Below, one piece after another: positions 10,176 through 54,975 of a DNA stretch of 64,000 nt. Numbering within the stretch: position 1 is the stretch's first letter; every line of letters starts with the position of its first letter. Source of the DNA: a virus (taxonomy: Duplodnaviria > Heunggongvirae > Uroviricota > Caudoviricetes); IMG/VR virus record IMGVR_UViG_2850808358_000005, one strand, 5' to 3'. The notes beneath the pieces are model-generated. The model was not told the origin of the DNA, searched no databases, and saw only the letters and a list, made by a program, of their open reading frames with translations. The translations under genes and the position numbers were made by a program.

Positions 10176-11371
10176 GACTCCACCGTTATAACGATATTTT
10201 CCGGGGTACAGGACGCAGATTCGTTGTATCTGATATCAATGTTTGATGACGACAAAGCCCCCGGGGATTTCCCAATCGTCAGCTCCTGAATATCGTAATA
10301 GCGTGCATTCCCGCCACTCACCACGCCAAGATTCGCCGGTGAGTAAATGCGACTTAAAAGGACCGAATCACCAATCGTCAGACTATTGATATAGTCGGAA
10401 ATAACCTGCTGGATCTGCTGCCCTATCTGTGAGGTATAACCCGTAAAAACTTTTAATTTAATCCGGGCATAAACAGGCACATCACTGGAACGCGAGAATT
10501 TGATTACATGGGGATTGCCGTATTTATCCGGAACCGTAACGGATGTTGTACCGTGAGTGGCTGTCCCCTGGCCTTTATTCCCTCTGATAGCCTGAGCAAT
10601 ATCCGTCACATCACCGCCATCCACAATTACAGCAACAGAGTGTGGCGGTAACCCGTTACCGTCCTCCGAACCAGTATCGTTTTCATAGAGTTTGTGGCGG
10701 GTTACACCGGCAACATTAGAAACAGCACCATCCAGTGCTTCAAATGGGGTTATTGATGGCAACGCAACACTTTGCGACTGGCGGATACGTAACTCAGCAT
10801 CAGTTTCTGCCGGAGAGCCAACAGTAGCCGCAGCAGGATTAATTACCGAAACCCAGCCACGGGTTGGCGTATTAATTTCAGTGATAGTTCCAGCCAGCGC
10901 CGCCACTGCACCACTGACGGAACATCTTGCGGTCGCCATCACTGTACCATCCACACCGACCACCACTGACGCAGGCAAACGCCATATCACATTATTACCA
11001 TCTTTCACGCTGCCATTAATGATGGTTGTTCCGGCTGTTCCTGTAAGAAGCAAATCAACCGTAGAGTTCGTCGCGCCTTTACGTGAAATACCATTTATTT
11101 TCACGTTACTGGTCAGTGCAGCCCCATAGCCGGTTGCCGGTGAAAAACAGTTGTAGACAGTTATAGCCATATTATTGGCATCATGAATCGCCAGCGCCAT
11201 CAGAGCCACCATCTGACCGTCTTTACTGTCCGGTTCGAGGTAGGCATCACTACCATAAATCTGCTGAAAATAGCTAATCAGGGTGCTGAGTATCGTCTGA
11301 TAATCAGGCGCACTGATCCCCTCCGCGGTTACCTTTGCAGATAAACCGAGAGAATCAAGGTTCAGAGCCAT
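10172..11371 (-). CDS. Baseplate J-like protein (Mu gp47-like)
   Basis: 399 aa, position and size in baseplate operon. Confidence 0.6.
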   Translation of the reverse strand: MALNLDSLGLSAKVTAEGISAPDYQTILSTLISYFQQIYGSDAYLEPDSKDGQMVALMALAIHDANNMAITVYNCFSPATGYGAALTSNVKINGISRKGATNSTVDLLLTGTAGTTIINGSVKDGNNVIWRLPASVVVGVDGTVMATARCSVSGAVAALAGTITEINTPTRGWVSVINPAAATVGSPAETDAELRIRQSQSVALPSITPFEALDGAVSNVAGVTRHKLYENDTGSEDGNGLPPHSVAVIVDGGDVTDIAQAIRGNKGQGTATHGTTSVTVPDKYGNPHVIKFSRSSDVPVYARIKLKVFTGYTSQIGQQIQQVISDYINSLTIGDSVLLSRIYSPANLGVVSGGNARYYDIQELTIGKSPGALSSSNIDIRYNESASCTPENIVITVES

Positions 11372-11724
11372 TACGCCTCCGATGTAACAGTCGTTATTCC
11401 ATAGAGAGTGTCGATTTCAGTGGAAAACCTGACACGTCGGGTCGTGGTATCCACCGTAGTATTGAAAGAGAGGATTGATTTAACGCCCCGCGTTTCGAGG
11501 ATGCGCTTACGGATCGCCAGGTTGTAGGTTTCCGGCTTCTGCTTACCGAGTACGGACTGGATCCACGGAGTCCCCTCGGTGGTGTCGAGAAACCATTGCC
11601 CATACCACAATTCGAATCGCGTTTTTACCGCCTGCGCCACGGCCTCCGGTGAGTTAATCAGCCAGGTGTCATCACCGCTGCCAAAGGTGTAATCGCCATC
11701 GGCGTCTTCACGTCTGTATCGCAT
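11371..11724 (-). CDS. Baseplate wedge protein (gp25/W-like)
   Basis: 117 aa, follows the baseplate spike gene. Confidence 0.55.
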   Translation of the reverse strand: MRYRREDADGDYTFGSGDDTWLINSPEAVAQAVKTRFELWYGQWFLDTTEGTPWIQSVLGKQKPETYNLAIRKRILETRGVKSILSFNTTVDTTTRRVRFSTEIDTLYGITTVTSEA

Positions 11725-12476
11725 CAGTTTACTCCGTCGGTATTGCTTCCACCGCGCTGAACACCACCATGAGTGTGCGTATCATCGATTGGCTTGCCGT
11801 TAGCCTTCACGCTACCCAAAAACTCAACAGCACCAGTGATTTTTGAAGCCACACCAGAAACAACAGACCCCACCATGCCACCCATCCAGGTTAACAGGCC
11901 ATGAATGGTTACTTTCTCAGAAAAATCAGCCAGAGGGGCAACCACATCAAGACCACCCGGAGCGACAATTTTAATTTTCCTGGTATCAGGATTAAGCTCA
12001 AAATAGGTACTGCCGTCGTCACTACGCAACTGTGTGGCACTGGTATTAATACCGCTAATCTTCCTCGCCTGCGACTGGGGACCTACAATACAAAACGCAT
12101 CCGATAAATCATGCATTCTGTCATCAACCGGCTCCTGTATCCCGCCACTCTGCCACCAGAAATCAATACAACGATCGGCAAAAACGACAAGACACTCATC
12201 CCCGGCTTTTACCGGAAAAGTCAACGTACAGCCTCCGCCGCGCGGGAATACCACTGGCACATCCACCAGCAAGGGTAATGTCGTCGACTGGTTGATTCCA
12301 TTTGAGTCTGGCTCATAGCCTTTAATCGCTGGTTGAACAACTACCGTTACCGTGTCCGGATCAAATGACTGGACGATGCCGGGCATAGAAACACGCAGCG
12401 CCGACATGACAGAGCCAGCAAGTCTTACATCGGCCTGTTCTTTGCTACCAAGTTGAGCGCTTAAAGAAACTGGCAT
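11724..12476 (-). CDS. Baseplate assembly/spike protein (gpV / Mu gp45-like)
   Basis: 250 aa, Gly-rich C-terminus, gene order. Confidence 0.55.
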   Translation of the reverse strand: MPVSLSAQLGSKEQADVRLAGSVMSALRVSMPGIVQSFDPDTVTVVVQPAIKGYEPDSNGINQSTTLPLLVDVPVVFPRGGGCTLTFPVKAGDECLVVFADRCIDFWWQSGGIQEPVDDRMHDLSDAFCIVGPQSQARKISGINTSATQLRSDDGSTYFELNPDTRKIKIVAPGGLDVVAPLADFSEKVTIHGLLTWMGGMVGSVVSGVASKITGAVEFLGSVKANGKPIDDTHTHGGVQRGGSNTDGVN

Positions 12477-33040: not shown

Positions 33041-33235
33041 TTAGTCTTCTTTAATACAGAAGTGGCTTACAGAATCTGCGTGCGATTCTTTGCTGATTAG
33101 AATTGCATCAGGAGGTAATGGCGTTACGATAAACTCCCCATTTTCGAGCGTTATCACTTCGTAGTGACCTGGTAAAGAAAGCACAACAATCAATTCTTTA
33201 ACGTTCATAACAAAAAGCCTGTGAACTTTTAACAC
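33041..33235 (-). CDS. Hypothetical small phage protein
   Basis: 64-aa ORF. Confidence 0.3.
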   Translation of the reverse strand: MLKVHRLFVMNVKELIVVLSLPGHYEVITLENGEFIVTPLPPDAILISKESHADSVSHFCIKED

Positions 33236-33430: not shown

Positions 33431-33586
33431 TTACTTCCTGGATTCGTAGTCTACGAAGACAGCGACCTCCGTCTGGCCGGTTCGGATTCGTACCTCACAG
33501 AGGTCTTTCCTCGTTACCAGTGCCGTCACTATGACGGTTAAACAGATGACGATCAGGGCGATTAACATCGCCTTTTGCTGCTTCAT
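33431..33586 (-). CDS. hok: Hok/Gef-family type I toxin
   Basis: MKQQKAMLIALIVICLTVIVTALVTRKDLCEVRIRTGQTEVAVF... matches the Hok/Gef family; overlapping upstream frame (mok-like). Confidence 0.85.
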   Translation of the reverse strand: MKQQKAMLIALIVICLTVIVTALVTRKDLCEVRIRTGQTEVAVFVDYESRK

Positions 33587-33813
33587 AGCCTGCTTCTCCT
33601 TGCCTTTCGGCATGTAAGAGGCTAACCTACATGTGCAAAGCATGAAATTGGCCTCAGATTAATGTTAAGCGTCTTGCCGGACGCGTAATGTTAACTGGGG
33701 CTTTTCTCTATCTGCCTTTTGGTGTTCATGCCTGAAGCAGATAGCCTCAAGCACCCGCAGTCATTCTACTTACCTCGCCAATATGAAATCAATCAGAAAG
33801 GTGCCCCATAAAA

Positions 33814-34500
33814 TCACTCCTTCTCTTCTTTACCGTAGTGGAGTTGACCAATTTTGATAAGAGGGCGTCCCTGAGATTTGCGGTGTAGATTGGTATCGCG
33901 CAGAGAATACACACAGCCACAATATTCCTGCTGATAGAATTTTTCGCGCTTGCTGATTTCAATCATACGGGACGAGCCGCCCTGCTTGCGCCAGTTATAA
34001 TCCCAGTACACCATGCCCGGATAATGCGCGACGGCTCGCCGCCCACAGTCGTTAACCTGCTGCATATTTTTCCAGCGTGAAATGCCCAGTGAACTGCTGA
34101 TCACACTGAAACCATTTTCAGCGGCGTACAGCGCTGTCCGCTCAAAACGCATGTCAAAACACATGGTGCAACGGATCCCTCGTTCGGGCTCCCATTCCAT
34201 TCCTTTGGCTCGTTCAAACCAGTTGTCTGTGTCGTAATCAGCATCAATAAACGGCACGCCGTGTTGTTCAGCAAAGCGAATATTCTCATCCTTACGAATT
34301 AAATACTCTTTCTGAGGATGAATGTTCGGGTTGTAGAAAAAGATGGTGTAGTCGATTCCCGAGGCCTGAAGCGCCTCCATCACCTCACCGGAACATGGAG
34401 CACAGCAAGAGTGCAGTAGTAGTTTGTTTGCCCCGTTTGGGAGCTCCAATTTGGGCCGTTTGAAATCAGCAACTGTCATAAATATGTTTATTGGGGTCAT
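33814..34500 (-). CDS. DUF208 / QueH-like protein (epoxyqueuosine reductase family)
   Basis: 228 aa with [11 protein letters not shown] motif near the N-terminus and further conserved Cys (CTMCF, CGC). Confidence 0.6.
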
Positions 34501-34647
34501 AAAAATATCAAAGAGTGTAGCATTAGAACGGGGCTATCGGAAACAGATGTGTGACTGCTCCCCGCCCTTTCGGGCGGTCTCCTGATGATTTGAGGGTGCA
34601 GAAATCCCTCCGGTTAAGGATTAAATTTTTAACAGTGCTAAATTTAA

Positions 34648-35061
34648 TTATTCAGTTCTGGATTTTGTCGCCCTGCGTATCCGCGCTTTCGCGTTACGCT
34701 CAATCTGTATCAGCTTTTCTATATTTCTCCGCCTTTCCTGTTCCTCCTGGCGCAATAGCCTTACATCATCTGCCAGTCTGGTTTCTCTTTTTGCCACAGA
34801 GAGCATCCAGTCAAACGGCTCCACAACCGCACCGCAGATTTTACAGCGGACCTGACGCTCTTTTTCGTCAACCCGTACAGAGGCGTGATGGCAATATGGT
34901 CTTTCCGATGGCTCATAAAGAAAATTAACCTGATTACGAGGGTCATCCTCTTTTATCGGAAATAAAACGATATTGCTTAACTCATCTTCTGGTTTTATTT
35001 CCATGCTCCTCTCCTTTGATGCGAATGCCAGCGGTAATTGAAGCCTGATAGCTAATTTCAT
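34648..35061 (-). CDS. Hypothetical zinc-ribbon protein
   Basis: CHH...CKIC motif; probable start MEIKPED. Confidence 0.3.
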   Translation of the reverse strand: MKLAIRLQLPLAFASKERSMEIKPEDELSNIVLFPIKEDDPRNQVNFLYEPSERPYCHHASVRVDEKERQVRCKICGAVVEPFDWMLSVAKRETRLADDVRLLRQEEQERRRNIEKLIQIERNAKARIRRATKSRTE

Positions 35062-35484
35062 TCACAGTATCGCCTCCTGAAAATTACCCTGATAGAAAGC
35101 CAGTACACGCTGCATAGCTTCGCTCTTCCGGCACTCGCGATAGATTATATTCAGGCGCCTGTCGTAGCGGCGTATTTCTCCGTCAGGTAATGACCAGATA
35201 AGGTCCGGATCAACAACAACCGGTTTCCTCACCTTTACTCTCGAGAGTTTTTTGCGGGCGCTTTGCCAGTCCTTGCGAGCCTGTTCAGACGGGAATAAGC
35301 CGTAGCCAGAATTATATACATCACCACTTGCGACCAGTTCCATGCATAAGCGACCGACAGACGCACGACTGATACCTGTTTCATCTGACAACTGCCGAAT
35401 CGTGACCCGACCGTCCTGATGCACGAGTTCCACAATTCGCGTCTTCAGTTCTTCCCGCTGTTCGGGAGTAAAAGGTTTCGCCAT
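35062..35484 (-). CDS. Hypothetical HTH-containing phage protein
   Basis: 140-aa ORF. Confidence 0.3.
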   Translation of the reverse strand: MAKPFTPEQREELKTRIVELVHQDGRVTIRQLSDETGISRASVGRLCMELVASGDVYNSGYGLFPSEQARKDWQSARKKLSRVKVRKPVVVDPDLIWSLPDGEIRRYDRRLNIIYRECRKSEAMQRVLAFYQGNFQEAIL

Positions 35485-40950: not shown

Positions 40951-41220
40951 GCTTTCTGATATCCGGGATATTGACAAAGCAACCTGCATTGTTGCAAGAT
41001 GATCGCACTAGAAACAGTTAAGCGGTCATCCGCACCCGATAGCCTTGCGGCTTTTTTATGCCTGAAATACGGCACATCCGTACAAAGATCGGGTGGAGAG
41101 GCGTAATACAATACCCGTAAGGGGAATATGCCCGGAGCTTCTTAACTGGCTCTAGTTGACACCCGATCACCAGCTACTAACTGGTAATCGCAGACTAAAA
41201 CAGTTAAGGAGGCCACTAAA

Positions 41221-41775
41221 ATGGCTACTATCCCTGCCCTTTCTCACCCTGACGTAACCATCGAAAATGGTCGCGCTGTCACTACGTCTGTTGCTATTGC
41301 GGAGTTCTTCGGCAAACGCCACGAACGTGTGCTGGATAAAATTCGCAATTTAGACTGCTCATCAAATTTTAACGAACACAATTTTGTGTCGGTCACCTAC
41401 ACCGACACCAAAGGCGAAAAACGCCCAATGTACCAAATCACCAAAAACGGCTTCGTTTTCCTGGTGATGGGCTTCACTGGCAAAAAAGCCGCCGCATTCA
41501 AAGAAGCCTACATTGCTGAGTTCGACCGCATGGAGGCCGAACTGCGCCAGAATAATACCCTGCCCGCTGACAAAATTATCCCGGGAGATGGCCGTACTCT
41601 CGTTGTTCACTTCGACGAACACGGCAACATCAGATTCACCGAAACCGTTCCTGACGGTGCAATGGTCTGTACCCTGGATACTTTCCAGTTTTATCTGGAA
41701 AAACAGGGGTGGGCTCTTGTAAACCGGAGCGCAATTAAAAACATGACCGTAGAGCAGTTGCTTTCCTTAAAATAA
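41221..41775 (+). CDS. Rha-family phage regulatory protein
   Basis: N-terminal ...TSVAIAEFFGKRHERVLDKIRNL... Rha domain. Confidence 0.7.
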   Translation: MATIPALSHPDVTIENGRAVTTSVAIAEFFGKRHERVLDKIRNLDCSSNFNEHNFVSVTYTDTKGEKRPMYQITKNGFVFLVMGFTGKKAAAFKEAYIAEFDRMEAELRQNNTLPADKIIPGDGRTLVVHFDEHGNIRFTETVPDGAMVCTLDTFQFYLEKQGWALVNRSAIKNMTVEQLLSLK

Positions 41776-44610: not shown

Positions 44611-45019
44611 AATCTATGGCGCTTTTTCAACGAGCAATAAACACACAGGCCTATCTAAAAGCAGGAATTATGGGGTTTGCTGGCGACGGCAAAACCTACA
44701 CAGCAAGCGAACTGGCTATTGGTCTGGTAATGCTTATGCGGCAACGGGGAATTGAAGCTGGTAACCGCCCGGTAATGTTTCTGGACACAGAAACAGGCTC
44801 TGACTGGGTTAAACCCCGCTTTGATGCGGAAAATATCGAATTATTTACGGCAAAAACCCGCTCGTTTGTTGATCTGCTTGAAGCCATTAATGAAGCGGAA
44901 AGCAGCGGTTCCGTAATGATCATCGACTCCATCAGTCACTTCTGGACCGGATTATGCGACGAGTATGCCAGACGCCGAAACCGTAAACGAGGACTGGAAT
45001 TTTCAGACTGGGCGTGGCT

Positions 45020-46284
45020 TGAGGTGTACTGGCAATAGCGGACACTACCATTTGTTCTTTTTTTAAGCAGCCATCTGATGATATTTTTCCCTGAAGGCTG
45101 CCGGGGAGATATTCCCCAGACGAGAGTGACGACGCTGACGATTGTAGAAAATCTCAATGTATTCCCGTATTACTGAGATGGCTTCATCCCGGTTATTAAA
45201 ACGATAGTGGCTCAGGCTCTCATTTTTCAGCGTTCCCCAGAAGCTTTCCATCGGAGCGTTGTCGTAACAGTTACCTTTACGCGACATTGATGTTTTCAGA
45301 CCAAACTGCTCCTGTATGACCCGGTAATCGTATGCGCAGTACTGTGAACCTCGATCAGAGTGGTGGATTAGCCCGGCAGGTGGGCGCTGGCTCCTGAGCG
45401 CCATAAACAGGGCTTTACCTGTCAGCTCTTTTGTCATGCGCTCTCCCATGGCGTAGCCGACAATTTCGCACGTATAAACATCTTTGATGCCAGCGAGGTA
45501 CAACCATCCCTCCTGTGTGGCAACATACGTCAGGTCCGCCACCCAGACCTGATTTGGTGCTGTAGGAGCGAACGTCTGGTTCAGCAGATTTGGCGCAACT
45601 GGCAGATTGTGGTTCGGGTTCGTAGTCGCTCTGAACTTGCGTTTCTGCTTACAGCGTAGCCTTAGCTCCTTACGAAGACGTGCCAGTCGGTCACGACCAA
45701 CGATGATGCCATTCTCTGCCAGCTCCGTCTGGAGCCGCCGGGTTCCATATGTTTCGCGAGTGCGGATATGTGCCACCTTAATCTCCAGTTTTAGCCGCTC
45801 ATCACTTTGTTTTCTGTCTGAGGGTTCATGCTGTACCCAGTTGTAATAACCGCTCCTGGATACACCAAATACCTGACACATAGCTTCAATGGGAAATTGT
45901 TGTCGCCATTGTTCGATTAACGCGTATTTTTCAGCGACTCCTGTGCAAAATACGCTGTTGCTTTTTTTTAATATATCTCGCTCAAGGCGAGCTTCATTTA
46001 ACGCCTTACGCAGTTGCAGAATTTCAGATTCCAGTTCAGCCACCGTGCGGGAACCAGGAGTACCGAGCCCTTTTCTGGCGGCGGTAACCCATTGTCCTAA
46101 AGTGCCTTCAGGAAGGGATAATCGGGAAGCGCCTTCACTGATCGAAAGTTGATTTTCAAGAACCGTTCTGACAGCTTCGGCTTTGAACTCTTTAGAGTAA
46201 CGTTGGGTTTTTCTGCTCATTATTAGCTCCTTCTGATGCCATTCTATTTCAGGAAGGAGTGTCCGTTAAACTCAGGCTACCTCA
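45020..46284 (-). mobile_element. IS600 copy 3, 1265 bp, TSD GCT
   Basis: Ends as other copies; GCT at 45017..45019 and 46285..46287; one extra A in the slippery run. Confidence 0.9.
45063..46220 (-). CDS. IS600 fused OrfAB transposase (in-frame fusion)
   Basis: 385-aa continuous ORF; A8 (45962..45969) versus A7 in the other four copies. Confidence 0.8.
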   Translation of the reverse strand: MSRKTQRYSKEFKAEAVRTVLENQLSISEGASRLSLPEGTLGQWVTAARKGLGTPGSRTVAELESEILQLRKALNEARLERDILKKSNSVFCTGVAEKYALIEQWRQQFPIEAMCQVFGVSRSGYYNWVQHEPSDRKQSDERLKLEIKVAHIRTRETYGTRRLQTELAENGIIVGRDRLARLRKELRLRCKQKRKFRATTNPNHNLPVAPNLLNQTFAPTAPNQVWVADLTYVATQEGWLYLAGIKDVYTCEIVGYAMGERMTKELTGKALFMALRSQRPPAGLIHHSDRGSQYCAYDYRVIQEQFGLKTSMSRKGNCYDNAPMESFWGTLKNESLSHYRFNNRDEAISVIREYIEIFYNRQRRHSRLGNISPAAFREKYHQMAA

Positions 46285-47020
46285 GCTCAAACAGGAGTGG
46301 CGACGCTTTACCGATCGATTTGTTAACAGTCAGGCGCACATTATTATGTGCGGGCGTGCAGGATATGAGTATGACTTTTTCGAAGGTGATGATGGCAAAC
46401 GCCAGTTGGCAAAAACCGGTATAAAAATGAAAGCAGAAACAGAAACCGGTTATGAACCCTCCATCCTGATCCAGATGGAGAAGCAAATGAACATAGAAAC
46501 CGGTCAGGTGTGGCGCACCGCCAGAATACTAAAAGATCGCTCCACCCGTATTGATGGACAGGTATTTTCAAACCCAACATTTAAAAACTTTCTTCCTCAT
46601 ATCGAGTTTCTTAACCTGGGAGGTGAACACCTCGGCATCGATACCTCACGGGATAACAGTGAATTATTTGCCAACGACGGTACACCGACATGGCTAAAAG
46701 AAAAGCGTGCAAAAGAAATCGCACTTGATGAAATTATCGAGTTGCTCAACAAGCACCATGGGGGCACCAGTAACGACGCCAAACGCGCAAAAGCTGATTT
46801 GCTGGAAAAAACATTCACCTCCCGCTCATGGGAAAGAATCAAAGGTATGGACTGGCCGACAATCAAAGCTGGTCGTAATGCACTATGGATTGAACTGGAA
46901 GGCGTTGAATATGCATTCCCGGATCCACAAACACAAAACGAAACGCAACAAGCAGGATACGATGAGAATATTCCGGTGTAAAACCAAGTGCATTTTTGGA
47001 AAATATTAATGGAGGTGTTC

Positions 47021-47185
47021 ATGTATAAAATTACAGCCACTATTGAAAAGGAAGGTGGTTCTCCTGCCAGCTGGACAAGATACTCAAAGACAAAACTAAC
47101 GAAATCAGAATGCGAAAAAAATGCTCTCAGGGGAAAAAGAAGCAGGCGCTTCCAGAGAGCAGAAAGTAAAACTGATAAATTTTAA
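47021..47185 (+). CDS. Hypothetical small protein
   Basis: GGAGG RBS before MYKITATIEKEGG... Confidence 0.3.
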   Translation: MYKITATIEKEGGSPASWTRYSKTKLTKSECEKNALRGKRSRRFQRAESKTDKF

Positions 47186-47316
47186 TTGCGAGAAACTTCA
47201 GTCCTCGTGAATTTCATTATATCCAGATTAGAACTTCATAGCTGATTATTAAAAATCAACCACACCCGCCAGTATTCTGTATATTTACTGGCGGTCATAT
47301 CGTGAGAGGTATGGCA

Positions 47317-47598
47317 ATGAATCTTGTGACACTCAAAACGTGGGGAAAACTCAGATATCCGGATAACCCACCATCAATATCAACGCTGAGACGATGGGCA
47401 AGGAATGGAAACATTTATCCTGCACCTGAACTACACGGGAGGAGTTACAGGGTGGTTCCGGAGGCTTTCTATATCAACCCAAATAAGGTTGATACCGATA
47501 TAACACACCATCAGCCTAATGGGCGACAAGGGAGAGACAGTCCGTTAATGGAGAAGTTAAAACATGCAGCGGAAAAAATACGATCCCAATTTGCCTAG
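47317..47598 (+). CDS. xis: Excisionase
   Basis: MNLVTLKTWGKLRYPDNPPSISTLRRWARNGNIYPAPE... Xis-like, overlaps int start. Confidence 0.7.
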   Translation: MNLVTLKTWGKLRYPDNPPSISTLRRWARNGNIYPAPELHGRSYRVVPEAFYINPNKVDTDITHHQPNGRQGRDSPLMEKLKHAAEKIRSQFA

Positions 47599-48640
47599 AA
47601 ACTTAACATATCGAAGGAGAGACAAAGCATATTACTGGCGCAACCCTCTGACGAAAGAAGAATTTACACTAGGTAAAATTTCAAGAAGAGATGCAGTAAC
47701 GCAGGCAATTGAAGCAAATCATTATATATACAAAAACTACTCTCCCGCTGCCTTAATTGAAAAACTTAAAGGGTTCGACTCATTTACTATGGCAGACTGG
47801 ATTGAACGTTACAAAACGATTCTTATAAGGAGAAAAGTGTCCAGAAATACTTATAAAATTCGGGCAAATCAACTGGAGACAATAAAAGAAAAATTGGGAG
47901 AGATTTTACTGACAGAAATAACCACTCGCCATATTGCCGAGTTTCTTGATTTGTGGATTGAAGGAGGGAAAAACACAATGGCAGGATCAATGCGTTCTGT
48001 GTTGTCTGATATGTTTCGCGAGGCCATTGTTGAAGGACGTATATCTCAAAATCCAGTCACGCCAACAAGAGCACCGAAAATAGTAGTTACAAGAGAACGA
48101 CTGAAACTAAAGACATACAACTGCATCAGGGAGGCAGCAGATCAACTTCCGGCATGGTTCCCATTAGCTATGGATTTAGCCCTTGTAACAGGACAACGTC
48201 GCGAAGACATAACGAATATGCGGTTCAGTGATATTTATGATGATCGTCTCCACGTCAGGCAAATTAAGACAGGAATGATGATTGCTATCCCCCTGTCACT
48301 CAGCCTTCCTGTCGCTGGTCTACGGCTTGGTACAGTAGTTGAACGATGCCGCCTGGTAAGCCGGGGAGATTATCTAATCAGTGCCGGGATTAGAAAAAAC
48401 AGCCCTGACGGCAGCATTCACCCGGATGGCCTGACAAAAAAATTTGTCGCAGCCAGAAAATTCACAGGTATCCAGTTCAGTGAAAACCCACCAACTTTTC
48501 ACGAGATCAGAAGCCTGGCTGGACGATTGTACAAAGAAACATGTGGAGAAGAATTTGCTCAGCGTCTACTTGGCCACACATCGGAGAAGACAACAAAAAT
48601 GTATCTTGATGAGAGAGAAAAAACGTACTTACTGCTCTGA
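47564..48640 (+). CDS. int: Tyrosine integrase (lambda Int family)
   Basis: 358 aa; C-terminal catalytic region ...[11 protein letters not shown]...[15 protein letters not shown]. Confidence 0.9.
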
Positions 48641-48788: not shown

Positions 48789-49242
48789 GATTCCTGTTTT
48801 CGTCAACAAACAATAAAACCCTTTAAAATTAATGCGTTGAATAAATTTACGTTCATCTTTTAATCCCTGGCACGTACCATTGCATATTAATACATTCAAC
48901 CAGTTACCATTTTTTTCGAGTTTTTTAGAGAAATTTTCGGGAATATTTCAGGTCAATCCATGCAGACGCAAGCAATTCCTGTATTGAATAATTCCGTAGC
49001 AATTATGTAAAATCATCTCCGGCTGATTTTCATTCAAACTCGCGCTATCGAACATCCATCAGCCAGCCGTGGCACGTTCTTGCATACGACGTGCTACGGT
49101 TTCCTTTACGATTTGGGGTTGCGACTTTACCTCTATTGATAATGCATTCCGGCAGAACGTTCAAATATGAAGTACGATGTTTAACTAACCGAAAAACAAG
49201 AACAATACGGTGCAAGCAAGCTATTCACAGTTAACTGAAACA

Positions 49243-49259
49243 GTATCGTTTTTTTACAG
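49243..49259 (+). promoter_or_regulatory. MxiE box, second copy
   Basis: GTATCGTTTTTTTACAG identical to the first copy. Confidence 0.8.
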
Positions 49260-49378
49260 CCAATTTTGTTTGTCCTTTTATAATAAAAAAGTTATGAAGT
49301 TCATTTCATGGAATGAACTTCATAAAAACTCCTACTTATTTCTTTTAACAAAGCCATTTGTCCATCGGCTTTAACTGA

Positions 49379-51094
49379 ATGTCCATCATGTTACCGATAA
49401 ATAATAACTTTTCATTGTCCCAAAATTCTTTTTATAACACTATTTCCGGTACATATGCTGATTACTTTTCAGCATGGGATAAATGGGAAAAACAAGCGCT
49501 CCCCGGTGAAAATCGGAATGAAGCGGTCTCCCTACTTAAAGAATGTCTCATCAATCAGTTCAGTGAGCTTCAACTGAATCGTTTAAATCTGTCCTCGCTA
49601 CCTGACAACTTACCACCTCAAATCACTGTTCTGGAAATTACTCAGAATGCCCTAATATCATTACCAGAATTGCCAGCATCGCTGGAATACCTTGACGCCT
49701 GTGACAATCACCTGTCAACACTTCCTGAATTACCCGCATCTCTGAAACATCTTGATGTAGATAACAACCAACTAACCATGCTTCCTGAATTGCCTGCATT
49801 GCTGGAATATATTAATGCAGATAACAATCAGCTAACCATGCTTCCTGAATTACCTACATCGCTGGAAGTGCTCTCAGTAAGAAATAACCAGCTGACATTT
49901 CTCCCTGAGTTACCTGAATCACTGGAAGCGCTCGATGTAAGTACTAATCTTCTGGAAAGCCTACCAGCCGTACCTGTAAGAAATCATCACTCAGAGGAAA
50001 CCGAGATATTTTTCCGGTGCCGCGAGAATCGCATCACACACATTCCGGAAAATATACTTAGCCTTGATCCGACCTGCACTATCATCCTCGAAGACAATCC
50101 TCTGTCCTCACGGATCAGGGAGTCTCTGTCGCAACAAACCGCCCAACCGGACTACCACGGCCCACGGATTTACTTCTCCATGAGTGACGGACAACAGAAT
50201 ACACTCCATCGCCCCCTGGCTGATGCCGTGACAGCATGGTTCCCGGAAAACAAACAATCTGATGTATCACAGATATGGCATGCTTTTGAACATGAAGAGC
50301 ACGCCAACACCTTTTCCGCGTTCCTTGACCGCCTTTCCGATACCGTCTCTGCACGCAATACCTCCGGATTCCGTGAACAGGTCGCTGCATGGCTGGAAAA
50401 ACTCAGTGCCTCTGCGGAGCTTCGACAGCAGTCTTTCGCTGTTGCTGCTGATGCCACTGAGAGCTGTGAGGACCGTGTCGCGCTCACATGGAACAATCTC
50501 CGGAAAACCCTCCTGGTCCATCAGGCATCTGAAGGCCTTTTCGATAATGATACCGGCGCTCTGCTCTCCCTGGGCAGGGAAATGTTCCGCCTCGAAATTC
50601 TGGAGGACATTGCCCGGGATAAAGTCAGAACTCTCCATTTTGTGGATGAGATAGAAGTCTACCTGGCCTTCCAGACCATGCTCGCAGAGAAACTTCAGCT
50701 CTCCACTGCCGTGAAGGAAATGCGTTTCTATGGCGTGTCGGGAGTGACAGCAAATGACCTCCGCACTGCCGAAGCCATGGTCAGAAGCCGTGAAGAGAAT
50801 GAATTTACGGACTGGTTCTCCCTCTGGGGACCATGGCATGCTGTACTGAAGCGTACGGAAGCTGACCGCTGGGCGCTGGCAGAAGAGCAGAAATATGAGA
50901 TGCTGGAGAATGAGTACCCTCAGAGGGTGGCTGACCGGCTGAAAGCATCAGGTCTGAGCGGTGATGCGGATGCGGAGAGGGAAGCCGGTGCACAGGTGAT
51001 GCGTGAGACTGAACAGCAGATTTACCGTCAGCTGACTGACGAGGTACTGGCCCTGCGATTGCCTGAAAACGGCTCACAACTGCACCATTCATAA
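49379..51094 (+). CDS. ipaH: IpaH-family type III effector, second identical copy
   Basis: 571-aa product identical to 1400..3115. Confidence 0.95.
   Translation: MSIMLPINNNFSLSQNSFYNTISGTYADYFSAWDKWEKQALPGENRNEAVSLLKECLINQFSELQLNRLNLSSLPDNLPPQITVLEITQNALISLPELPASLEYLDACDNHLSTLPELPASLKHLDVDNNQLTMLPELPALLEYINADNNQLTMLPELPTSLEVLSVRNNQLTFLPELPESLEALDVSTNLLESLPAVPVRNHHSEETEIFFRCRENRITHIPENILSLDPTCTIILEDNPLSSRIRESLSQQTAQPDYHGPRIYFSMSDGQQNTLHRPLADAVTAWFPENKQSDVSQIWHAFEHEEHANTFSAFLDRLSDTVSARNTSGFREQVAAWLEKLSASAELRQQSFAVAADATESCEDRVALTWNNLRKTLLVHQASEGLFDNDTGALLSLGREMFRLEILEDIARDKVRTLHFVDEIEVYLAFQTMLAEKLQLSTAVKEMRFYGVSGVTANDLRTAEAMVRSREENEFTDWFSLWGPWHAVLKRTEADRWALAEEQKYEMLENEYPQRVADRLKASGLSGDADAEREAGAQVMRETEQQIYRQLTDEVLALRLPENGSQLHHS
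49600..49969 (+). repeat. LRR-encoding tandem DNA repeats in the second ipaH
   Basis: Same as first copy. Confidence 0.7.
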
Positions 51095-51940: not shown

Positions 51941-52759
51941 ATGTGTCAGGTATTTGGTGTATCCAGGAGCGGTTATTACAACCGGGTACAGCATGAACCC
52001 TCAGACAGAAAACAAAGTGATGAGCGGCTAAAACTGGAGATTAAGGTGGCACATATCCGCACTCGCGAAACATATGGAACCCGGCGGCTCCAGACGGAGC
52101 TGGCAGAGAATGGCATCATCGTTGGTCGTGACCGACTGGCACGTCTTCGTAAGGAGCTAAGGCTACGCTGTAAGCAGAAACGCAAGTTCAGAGCGACTAC
52201 GAACCCGAACCACAATCTGCCAGTTGCGCCAAATCTGCTGAACCAGACGTTCGCTCCTACAGCACCAAATCAGGTCTGGGTGGCGGACCTGACGTATGTT
52301 GCCACACAGGAGGGATGGTTGTACCTCGCTGGCATCAAAGATGTTTATACGTGCGAAATTGTCGGCTACGCCATGGGAGAGCGCATGACAAAAGAGCTGA
52401 CAGGTAAAGCCCTGTTTATGGCGCTCAGGAGCCAGCGCCCACCTGCCGGGCTAATCCACCACTCTGATCGAGGTTCACAGTACTGCGCATACGATTACCG
52501 GGTCATACAGGAGCAGTTTGGTCTGAAAACATCAATGTCGCGTAAAGGTAACTGTTACGACAACGCTCCGATGGAAAGCTTCTGGGGAACGCTGAAAAAT
52601 GAGAGCCTGAGCCACTATCGTTTTAATAACCGGGATGAAGCCATCTCAGTAATACGGGAATACATTGAGATTTTCTACAATCGTCAGCGTCGTCACTCTC
52701 GTCTGGGGAATATCTCCCCGGCAGCCTTCAGGGAAAAATATCATCAGATGGCTGCTTAA
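51941..52759 (+). CDS. IS600 OrfB transposase
   Basis: 272 aa. Confidence 0.9.
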   Translation: MCQVFGVSRSGYYNRVQHEPSDRKQSDERLKLEIKVAHIRTRETYGTRRLQTELAENGIIVGRDRLARLRKELRLRCKQKRKFRATTNPNHNLPVAPNLLNQTFAPTAPNQVWVADLTYVATQEGWLYLAGIKDVYTCEIVGYAMGERMTKELTGKALFMALRSQRPPAGLIHHSDRGSQYCAYDYRVIQEQFGLKTSMSRKGNCYDNAPMESFWGTLKNESLSHYRFNNRDEAISVIREYIEIFYNRQRRHSRLGNISPAAFREKYHQMAA

Positions 52760-54156: not shown

Positions 54157-54975
54157 TTAAGCAGCCATCTGATGATATTTTTCCCTGAAGGCTGCCGGGG
54201 AGATATTCCCCAGACGAGAGTGACGACGCTGACGATTGTAGAAAATCTCAATGTATTCCCGTATTACTGAGATGGCTTCATCCCGGTTATTAAAACGATA
54301 GTGGCTCAGGCTCTCATTTTTCAGCGTTCCCCAGAAGCTTTCCATCGGAGCGTTGTCGTAACAGTTACCTTTACGCGACATTGATGTTTTCAGACCAAAC
54401 TGCTCCTGTATGACCCGGTAATCGTATGCGCAGTACTGTGAACCTCGATCAGAGTGGTGGATTAGCCCGGCAGGTGGGCGCTGGCTCCTGAGCGCCATAA
54501 ACAGGGCTTTACCTGTCAGCTCTTTTGTCATGCGCTCTCCCATGGCGTAGCCGACAATTTCGCACGTATAAACATCTTTGATGCCAGCGAGGTACAACCA
54601 TCCCTCCTGTGTGGCAACATACGTCAGGTCCGCCACCCAGACCTGATTTGGTGCTGTAGGAGCGAACGTCTGGTTCAGCAGATTTGGCGCAACTGGCAGA
54701 TTGTGGTTCGGGTTCGTAGTCGCTCTGAACTTGCGTTTCTGCTTACAGCGTAGCCTTAGCTCCTTACGAAGACGTGCCAGTCGGTCACGACCAACGATGA
54801 TGCCATTCTCTGCCAGCTCCGTCTGGAGCCGCCGGGTTCCATATGTTTCGCGAGTGCGGATATGTGCCACCTTAATCTCCTGTTTTAGCCGCTCATCACT
54901 TTGTTTTCTGTCTGAGGGTTCATGCTGTACCCGGTTGTAATAACCGCTCCTGGATACACCAAATACCTGACACAT
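54157..54975 (-). CDS. IS600 OrfB transposase
   Basis: 272 aa (ERLKQEIKV variant). Confidence 0.9.
   Translation of the reverse strand: MCQVFGVSRSGYYNRVQHEPSDRKQSDERLKQEIKVAHIRTRETYGTRRLQTELAENGIIVGRDRLARLRKELRLRCKQKRKFRATTNPNHNLPVAPNLLNQTFAPTAPNQVWVADLTYVATQEGWLYLAGIKDVYTCEIVGYAMGERMTKELTGKALFMALRSQRPPAGLIHHSDRGSQYCAYDYRVIQEQFGLKTSMSRKGNCYDNAPMESFWGTLKNESLSHYRFNNRDEAISVIREYIEIFYNRQRRHSRLGNISPAAFREKYHQMAA

Follow-up and report, generated by a model that had tools for sequence, protein, structure and literature searches.

A predicted QueH-type epoxyqueuosine reductase encoded by lambdoid prophages of Escherichia coli and Shigella

Genes and features of the queH locus

The window analysed here, a 64,000-nucleotide stretch of Caudoviricetes DNA taken as a whole (IMG/VR record IMGVR_UViG_2850808358_000005), closely resembles the prophage found between ybhA and pgl in NZ_CP065613.1. 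That prophage encodes an integrase, RecE/Gam, cI/Cro-like proteins, YdaT/U/V, DUF977, QueH and HokD, together with DUF1367, YbcO, a DUF1133 Q-like protein, tRNAs, lysis, head and tail proteins and an IpaH effector. The gene under study, queH, is the longest ORF at 33814..34500 on the minus strand (stop codon at 33814-33816); it is intact, matches the Pfam QueH family and encodes 228 aa counted from the first ATG. The replication module lies on one side of it and hok/sok on the other, and a tRNA cluster follows 2.5 kb further on.

The replication module ends with a DUF977 (YdaW-like) gene (35062..35484, minus strand; Pfam DUF977, E=1.1e-32). The upstream neighbour of queH is a small zinc-ribbon-like ORF (34648..35061, minus strand), whose weak match to Zn_Ribbon_TF falls below the Pfam cutoff and which was found in only some queH phages, a subset of the IMG/VR contexts. 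Directly downstream of queH lies the hok/mok reading frame of a HokD-type toxin (33431..33643, minus strand; Pfam HOK_GEF, E=9.8e-23), annotated as hokD by PGAP in a near-identical record, together with the sok antisense RNA of this hok/sok type I toxin-antitoxin locus (33581..33756, minus strand; Rfam RF01794, 117 bits against a gathering score of 59). The tRNA cluster (31040..31350, minus strand; ARAGORN and Rfam tRNA) comprises four tRNAs, Met/Ile2(CAT), Arg(TCT), Thr(TGT) and Gly(TCC). An earlier note on this DNA had described queH as prophage-encoded, next to hok and upstream of the tRNA cluster. All three descriptions hold: queH is flanked by phage genes for replication, antitermination, lysis and structural proteins and by genes of the nin type, the Hok/Gef and sok matches adjoin it, and the tRNAs follow it on the same strand, so that it is upstream of them in transcription order.

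The first phage tRNA (31274-31350, minus strand) was called tRNA-Met(CAT) by ARAGORN and tRNA-Ile, for the identical gene, by PGAP; this would fit an Ile2 tRNA modified with lysidine, a type also present in the tRNA clusters of other lambdoid phages. Between the lysis and terminase genes, on the opposite strand, a gene for a DedA/VTT-domain membrane protein (28581-29093, plus strand) appears to be cargo.

The window prophage is more decayed than the NZ_CP065613.1 copy, from which it differs by IS3-family insertions of about 1.26 kb and by rearrangements. Such insertions were found at 4149-5414, 8605-9870 and 45019-46285, with further ORFs at 51941-52759 and 54157-54975; they encode IS3-family transposases (rve domain; ORFs of 272 aa and one of 385 aa). 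Because they interrupt the tail and early-left regions, this copy of the prophage is probably defective, with queH still intact. The window also contains Shigella-type sRNAs (CssrB and sok/CssrC) and two ipaH genes, pointing to a Shigella-like host.

Several other features of the element were recorded. A duplicated unit (1089-3115 and 49068-51094) consists of the sRNA CssrB (Rfam RF02799, 151.6 bits each) followed by a gene for an IpaH-type E3 ubiquitin ligase (LRR_TTSS and NEL domains, 571 aa); its presence on each side of the prophage region suggests a duplication or an IS-mediated rearrangement. The RalA antitoxin sRNA (47027-47206, minus strand; Rfam RF02694, 198.5 bits) adjoins the integrase gene (47564-48640) and marks a second type I toxin-antitoxin locus, of the Rac-prophage type, in the same element as queH. 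Finally, a match to sRNA-Xcc1 (41087-41176, plus strand; Rfam, 67.4 bits against a gathering score of 53) was found shortly ahead of a gene for a Rha-family regulator (41221-41775), in an early-left part that differs from the reference prophage.

The queH product is a QueH-family protein

The earlier note had reported a 228-aa protein carrying an HSCCAPCS motif, and both were recovered, the motif spanning residues 30-37 of the ORF. The true start of queH is, however, probably the second ATG (M8, position 34479), which would yield a protein of 221 aa. We favour M8 because PGAP starts queH there in the near-identical record, because chromosomal QueH orthologues begin at the position aligned with it, and because the seven codons ahead of it differ freely among phage copies whereas the remaining protein is almost invariant. 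No obvious Shine-Dalgarno sequence was seen ahead of either ATG upon inspection of the sequence.

A DUF208/QueH identity had been proposed in the earlier note, to be given up if a profile search returned no DUF208 match. The search returned a match to Pfam PF02677 (QueH, formerly DUF208) that covers positions 1-174 of the 175 in the profile (E=1.9e-65; 220.6 bits, the cutoff being 23.5), far beyond chance, and the proposed identity therefore stands. It agrees with the comparison with proteins of solved structure, as phmmer against the PDB retrieved the QueH of Thermotoga maritima (7lc5; E=5e-22 over 175 residues). RefSeq/PGAP names the exact protein 'epoxyqueuosine reductase QueH' in about a thousand complete genomes. 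An NCBIfam scan of the protein gave no match in the copy searched, though PGAP uses that name, and PHROGs assigns it to phrog_3217, which is listed as 'unknown function'.

To describe conservation we used a panel of 63 full-length QueH members (33-78% identity) drawn from a library clustered at 50%. The phage protein keeps 20 of the 20 positions conserved in at least 90% of this panel, among them C32, C33, C36, C111 and C114; it also keeps C194 and C196, which are conserved in 49-52 of the 63 members. All seven metal-ligand cysteines are thus present. In the same order, the aligned T. maritima residues are C9, C10, D13, C87, C90, C169 and C171, a set which we take to be the metal site of that enzyme. 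Phage QueH has Cys36 where the T. maritima protein has Asp13, and the solved T. maritima active site is consequently not identical to that of phage QueH. A cysteine occupies this position in 58 of the 63 members, CCAPC being the family norm (58/63). Furthermore, 110 alignment columns are invariant between phage QueH and 34 enterobacterial homologues; retention of such family-invariant residues was taken as an indirect sign that the substrate site is unchanged.

The AlphaFold2 model of the 221-aa form (pLDDT 75.6, pTM 0.78) leads to the same family. When it was compared with the PDB using Foldseek, the best five matches were all T. maritima QueH (TM-score normalized to the target 0.84, rmsd 2.7 Å, 180 columns), including, according to the entry titles, a C9S mutant, a D13N mutant and a complex with queuosine; the two mutants indicate that these residues have been functionally probed. 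The PP-loop-type enzymes TilS, TtuA and LarE come next, trailing by about seven orders of magnitude in E-value.

Phage QueH and T. maritima QueH (7LC5/7LC7) are therefore alike in their full-length match to PF02677, predicted fold, CC..C/CxxC/CxC cysteines and length. They differ in that the phage copy is carried by a lambdoid phage or prophage in a QueG-bearing host, has Cys36 for Asp13 and ends in a C-terminal tail beyond the alignment. This tail, basic and of about 25 residues, is also found in enterobacterial chromosomal QueH copies. Judged by sequence and predicted fold, the gene product is a genuine and well conserved QueH-family protein, an ordinary rather than a novel enzyme.

Candidate substrates

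The earlier note had considered that the protein might modify host or phage tRNA, that it might have been recruited for a different redox reaction, or that it might take part in deazaguanine modification of phage DNA. Queuosine is found only in tRNAs with a GUN anticodon, that is tRNA-Asp, -Asn, -His and -Tyr. None of the tRNAs of the window cluster (CAT, TCT, TGT, TCC) has such an anticodon, and none with one was found near queH in 45 related phage loci. Phage tRNAs were therefore rejected as QueH substrates, while modification of host tRNA is the best-supported function.

Recruitment for another reaction, for example to reduce a 7-deazaguanine derivative in phage DNA or another epoxide or nucleoside substrate, has a precedent, as some phages are known to modify their DNA with enzymes of the queuosine pathway (PMC6884629). 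Both that system, in which DpdA acts with FolE, QueD, QueE and QueC, and the present one involve queuosine-pathway enzymes carried by phages. Yet the same 2019 study, which surveyed viruses for genes of the queuosine pathway, detected no homologues of QueA, QueG or QueH in those analysed, and DNA modification requires a DpdA/TGT-type transglycosylase and preQ0 synthesis genes (PMC6884629), while QueH acts after insertion into tRNA. No TGT/DpdA, QueC/D/E or FolE was annotated in the near-identical prophage or found among the window-specific ORFs scanned with Pfam. With its partner genes lacking where checked, a DNA-modification role for QueH was set aside. Nor does the protein itself look redirected: it is as conserved as chromosomal QueH, to which it is 79-92% identical, it has evolved no faster than the chromosomal copies have among themselves, and all conserved family positions are kept. 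A defence-system role was likewise dropped, as PADLOC returned no match for QueH or for the small ORFs at 34648-35061 and 33041-33235, and only weak ones, below significance, for the DUF977 protein. Altogether we regard recruitment of QueH for another reaction as extremely improbable.

Distribution and the mobile cassette

At 95-100% nucleotide identity, queH was detected in 995 of 5426 complete E. coli genomes (~18%), and in 985 of these 995 the match covers at least 80% of the gene. The contexts inspected comprise an O157:H7 prophage, a 94-kb plasmid-like element, the isolated phage HannyBb, in which queH is annotated as 'hypothetical', and the best 80 of the 188 IMG/VR contigs matched (80/80). 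In every one of them queH occupies a single phage slot, where the replication module ends on one side (with DUF977, in some cases DUF1627 or a Zn-ribbon ORF) and hok/sok or other cargo lies on the other; the DUF977-type end precedes queH in nearly all contexts. Downstream of the slot lies either of two nin/Q modules. In the O157:H7 prophage (NZ_CP062774.1), a cytosine methyltransferase and an NgoMIV-family restriction endonuclease (9872-11882 of the locus) are found at the hok/sok position after queH, which shows the slot to be a general cargo hotspot.

Comparison of the window by blastn with the O157:H7 prophage, the plasmid-like element and HannyBb delimited the shared DNA. Homology begins at 34550 in all three cases and ends between 33808 and 33341, defining a minimal shared segment, or cassette, at 33808..34550 (minus strand) that consists of a 50-nt leader with its promoter-like motif and the gene. 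In other words, the shared DNA begins 50 nt upstream of the first ATG and ends shortly past the queH stop codon, and the neighbours otherwise differ. A GC-rich hairpin (34561-34583; CCGCCC-GAAA-GGGCGG) lies immediately outside the upstream edge of this segment, with a second hairpin ahead of it at about 34590-34610. On the queH strand, no T-run accompanies either of them. The hairpin at 34561-34583 was accordingly rejected both as a queH-strand terminator and as part of the cassette; the pair could mark a recombination junction or act as an opposite-strand terminator.

The arrangement recalls the morons, or lysogenic-conversion cargo, of lambdoid phages, with which it has in common a host-derived gene between conserved modules and a slot that holds other cargo in relatives; its promoter-like element may be a further likeness. 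Like a moron, queH is inserted between phage modules and is present or absent among otherwise related phages, reaching the ~18% of E. coli genomes mentioned above. Unlike for a moron, no terminator of its own was found, and its expression in lysogens is only predicted.

Chromosomal relatives, origin and selection

The closest relatives of phage QueH outside Escherichia and Shigella are the QueH proteins of Enterobacter, Scandinavium and Kluyvera (87-92% identity), followed by those of Erwinia, Pantoea, Serratia, Pectobacterium, Providencia, Proteus and Photorhabdus (79-87%). The loci of these relatives were classified by ORF listing and Pfam scans of the neighbouring genes, and the chromosomal contexts differ between genera. 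Non-phage contexts include purL-queH-glrK in Erwinia and tmcA..queH..purC in Providencia, while the neighbours of queH in Enterobacter and Kluyvera are LysR, oxidase, glycosidase and DHDPS genes. The closest non-phage relative (92%), from Enterobacter hormaechei (CP170191.1, 3283-3885 of the locus), adjoins a short ORF of the phage-integrase family; chromosomal copies in Enterobacteriaceae may thus lie on small islands and move horizontally.

Strong purifying selection acts on phage queH: comparison of the phage copies with one another gives a dN/dS of 0.04-0.08 at a dS of up to 0.29, and dN between phage QueH and Erwinia QueH (0.09) is lower than that between chromosomal orthologues of different genera (0.14-0.19). 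These values give no sign of relaxed or redirected selection, and the phage copy behaves like a normal QueH.

They also bear on whether queH could be a neutral hitchhiker, a host gene recently captured without benefit and spread by the adjacent, addictive hok/sok. Several features of the locus favour such a view: hok/sok adjoins queH in most contexts, the hosts already possess queG, and cargo is known to accumulate in the slot, with a restriction-modification system there in O157:H7. However, a dS of up to 0.29 among phage copies is divergence enough for decay to show, had there been any, and at that divergence the low dN/dS is accompanied by retention of the reading frame and of all conserved residues. 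Moreover, queH occurs both with and without hok, is carried by ~18% of the complete E. coli genomes and was matched in 188 viral contigs, which also argues against a passive passenger. We consider neutral hitchhiking very unlikely. The picture that we prefer is one in which a lambdoid phage lineage would have taken queH from an Enterobacterales chromosome, apparently with a native leader of about 50 nt, and in which the gene would since have travelled with phages as accessory cargo, placed in the variable slot that separates the replication module from hok/sok.

A promoter-like motif upstream of queH

Within the leader, an extended -10-like motif, TGCTACACT, can be read from the sequence at 34514..34522 (minus strand), 43 nt upstream of the M8 start, with a weak -35-like TTCCGA 17 nt further up (34537-34542, minus strand). 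Of 82 species-representative loci, 10 have exact TGCTACANT at -40 to -44, against a background expectation of 0.0004 per 120 nt. Chromosomal copies from Enterobacter, Scandinavium, Kluyvera and Erwinia, with upstream DNA that is unrelated apart from this, are among these loci, and looser TGnTAnnnT variants occur at -42 to -49 in about ten further loci. The form TGCTACA(C/A)T, 40-44 nt upstream of the queH start, was observed in both phage and chromosomal copies (loci L008, L019-L022 and L012-L014, the last three being the O157:H7 prophage, the plasmid-like element and HannyBb). It may represent an extended -10 promoter typical of the family; a regulatory site is another possibility.

As the motif is common to phage and chromosomal copies, queH was probably captured with its native promoter, the extended -10-like element of the leader, and, if so, its expression could be independent of the phage programme. 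A generic sigma-70 scan flagged no promoter upstream of queH on the queH strand, TGCTACACT included, and no terminator-like site was found in the scan between the queH stop codon and the hok/sok locus. Consequently, we infer phage-independent expression from this one conserved motif.

A second mode of expression follows from the position of the gene. Located on the same strand as, and between, the replication genes and the Q-like antiterminator, queH must be transcribed on induction. A genuine QueH might then serve the phage itself, being expressed mainly after induction within the early-right operon, raising queuosine levels and tuning the translation of phage genes during lytic growth. A 2026 preprint lends this idea some weight, reporting that phage infection raises queuosine through up-regulation of queG in Shewanella and treating the conversion of epoxyqueuosine (oQ) to queuosine (Q) as a regulated step (10.64898/2026.03.05.709803). 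Codon usage speaks against it: the NAT codon fraction of the prophage genes (0.54-0.57) shows no excess over that of the flanking host genes (0.56). The corresponding proposal of codon adaptation, in which phage genes would be rich in NAT codons, was rejected for that reason. In addition, queH is intact in an IS-disrupted prophage that is probably no longer capable of lytic growth, and the promoter-like motif common to the chromosomal copies points to expression independent of the phage. A mainly lytic role is, in our opinion, unlikely. Rather, queH would probably be expressed from its own promoter in the lysogen, with the early-right transcript contributing on induction.

Coexistence with QueG and proposed role

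To our knowledge, E. coli does not synthesize cobalamin de novo. The earlier note had stated that QueG, rather than QueH, is the enzyme of E. coli and Shigella, which the genome data corroborate: queG is present in 5426 of 5426 complete E. coli genomes by presence count. Every queH carrier among them therefore has two non-homologous enzymes for one step. QueG is described as cobalamin-dependent (PMC4646009) and QueH as a cobamide-independent alternative (PMC6461909).

QueG (YjeS) of E. coli and prophage QueH are both iron-sulfur enzymes, with the same predicted reaction on the same host tRNAs. They share no homology, prophage QueH is predicted to have no cobalamin requirement, and the two genes differ in status, queG being core (5426/5426) and queH accessory and phage-borne (995/5426). 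A comparable pair is known from Staphylococcus aureus, which carries both QueG and QueH, a situation interpreted as tuning to cofactor availability (PMC13443448). Two non-homologous reductases serve one step in one genome in both species; in S. aureus, though, both are described as cellular genes, whereas in E. coli a mobile phage brings in the second enzyme, whose presence varies between strains.

On these grounds we consider it likely that an ordinary QueH captured by phages gives lysogens a cobalamin-independent conversion of epoxyqueuosine to queuosine on host tRNAs. The iron-sulfur enzyme would convert oQ34 to Q34 in host tRNA-Asp, -Asn, -His and -Tyr without cobalamin. Since the hosts all have the cobalamin-dependent QueG, and E. 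coli is not known to make the cofactor de novo, prophage queH would most likely free the last queuosine step from external B12. We thus infer that the prophage enzyme is active, that it is expressed in the lysogen and that B12 independence is its benefit.

Implications for phage and host biology

The protein itself is a standard QueH whose annotation already exists in RefSeq; what is new is the mobile phage setting of a known enzyme family. With ordinary enzymology and a RefSeq name already given, the novelty is only modest. Targeted full-text searches found no description of a phage-borne QueH. A small but concrete practical gain is that phrog_3217 can now be annotated as QueH.

We tentatively put forward a broader possibility, namely that lambdoid prophages of E. 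coli and Shigella are vectors of cobalamin-independent queuosine maturation and that lysogens, unlike non-lysogens, keep mature queuosine-modified tRNA without B12. If true, the relevant conditions could include B12-poor or cobamide-analogue-rich gut niches, the intracellular life of Shigella, and loss of the B12 transporter BtuB. Insertion of queuosine (tgt) is linked to VirF-dependent virulence in Shigella (PMC1950534). The prophage would then encode a conversion trait acting through tRNA modification, with possible effects on virulence or stress. Should prophage QueH be active in lysogens, it would clearly exemplify the carriage by a phage of an enzyme for a late step of tRNA modification, and roughly one E. 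coli/Shigella strain in five would be set apart from the rest by the B12 dependence of its last queuosine step. Current work on queuosine in virulence, biofilm formation and stress takes no account of such a difference in the tRNA epitranscriptome, variable between strains and transmitted by phages.
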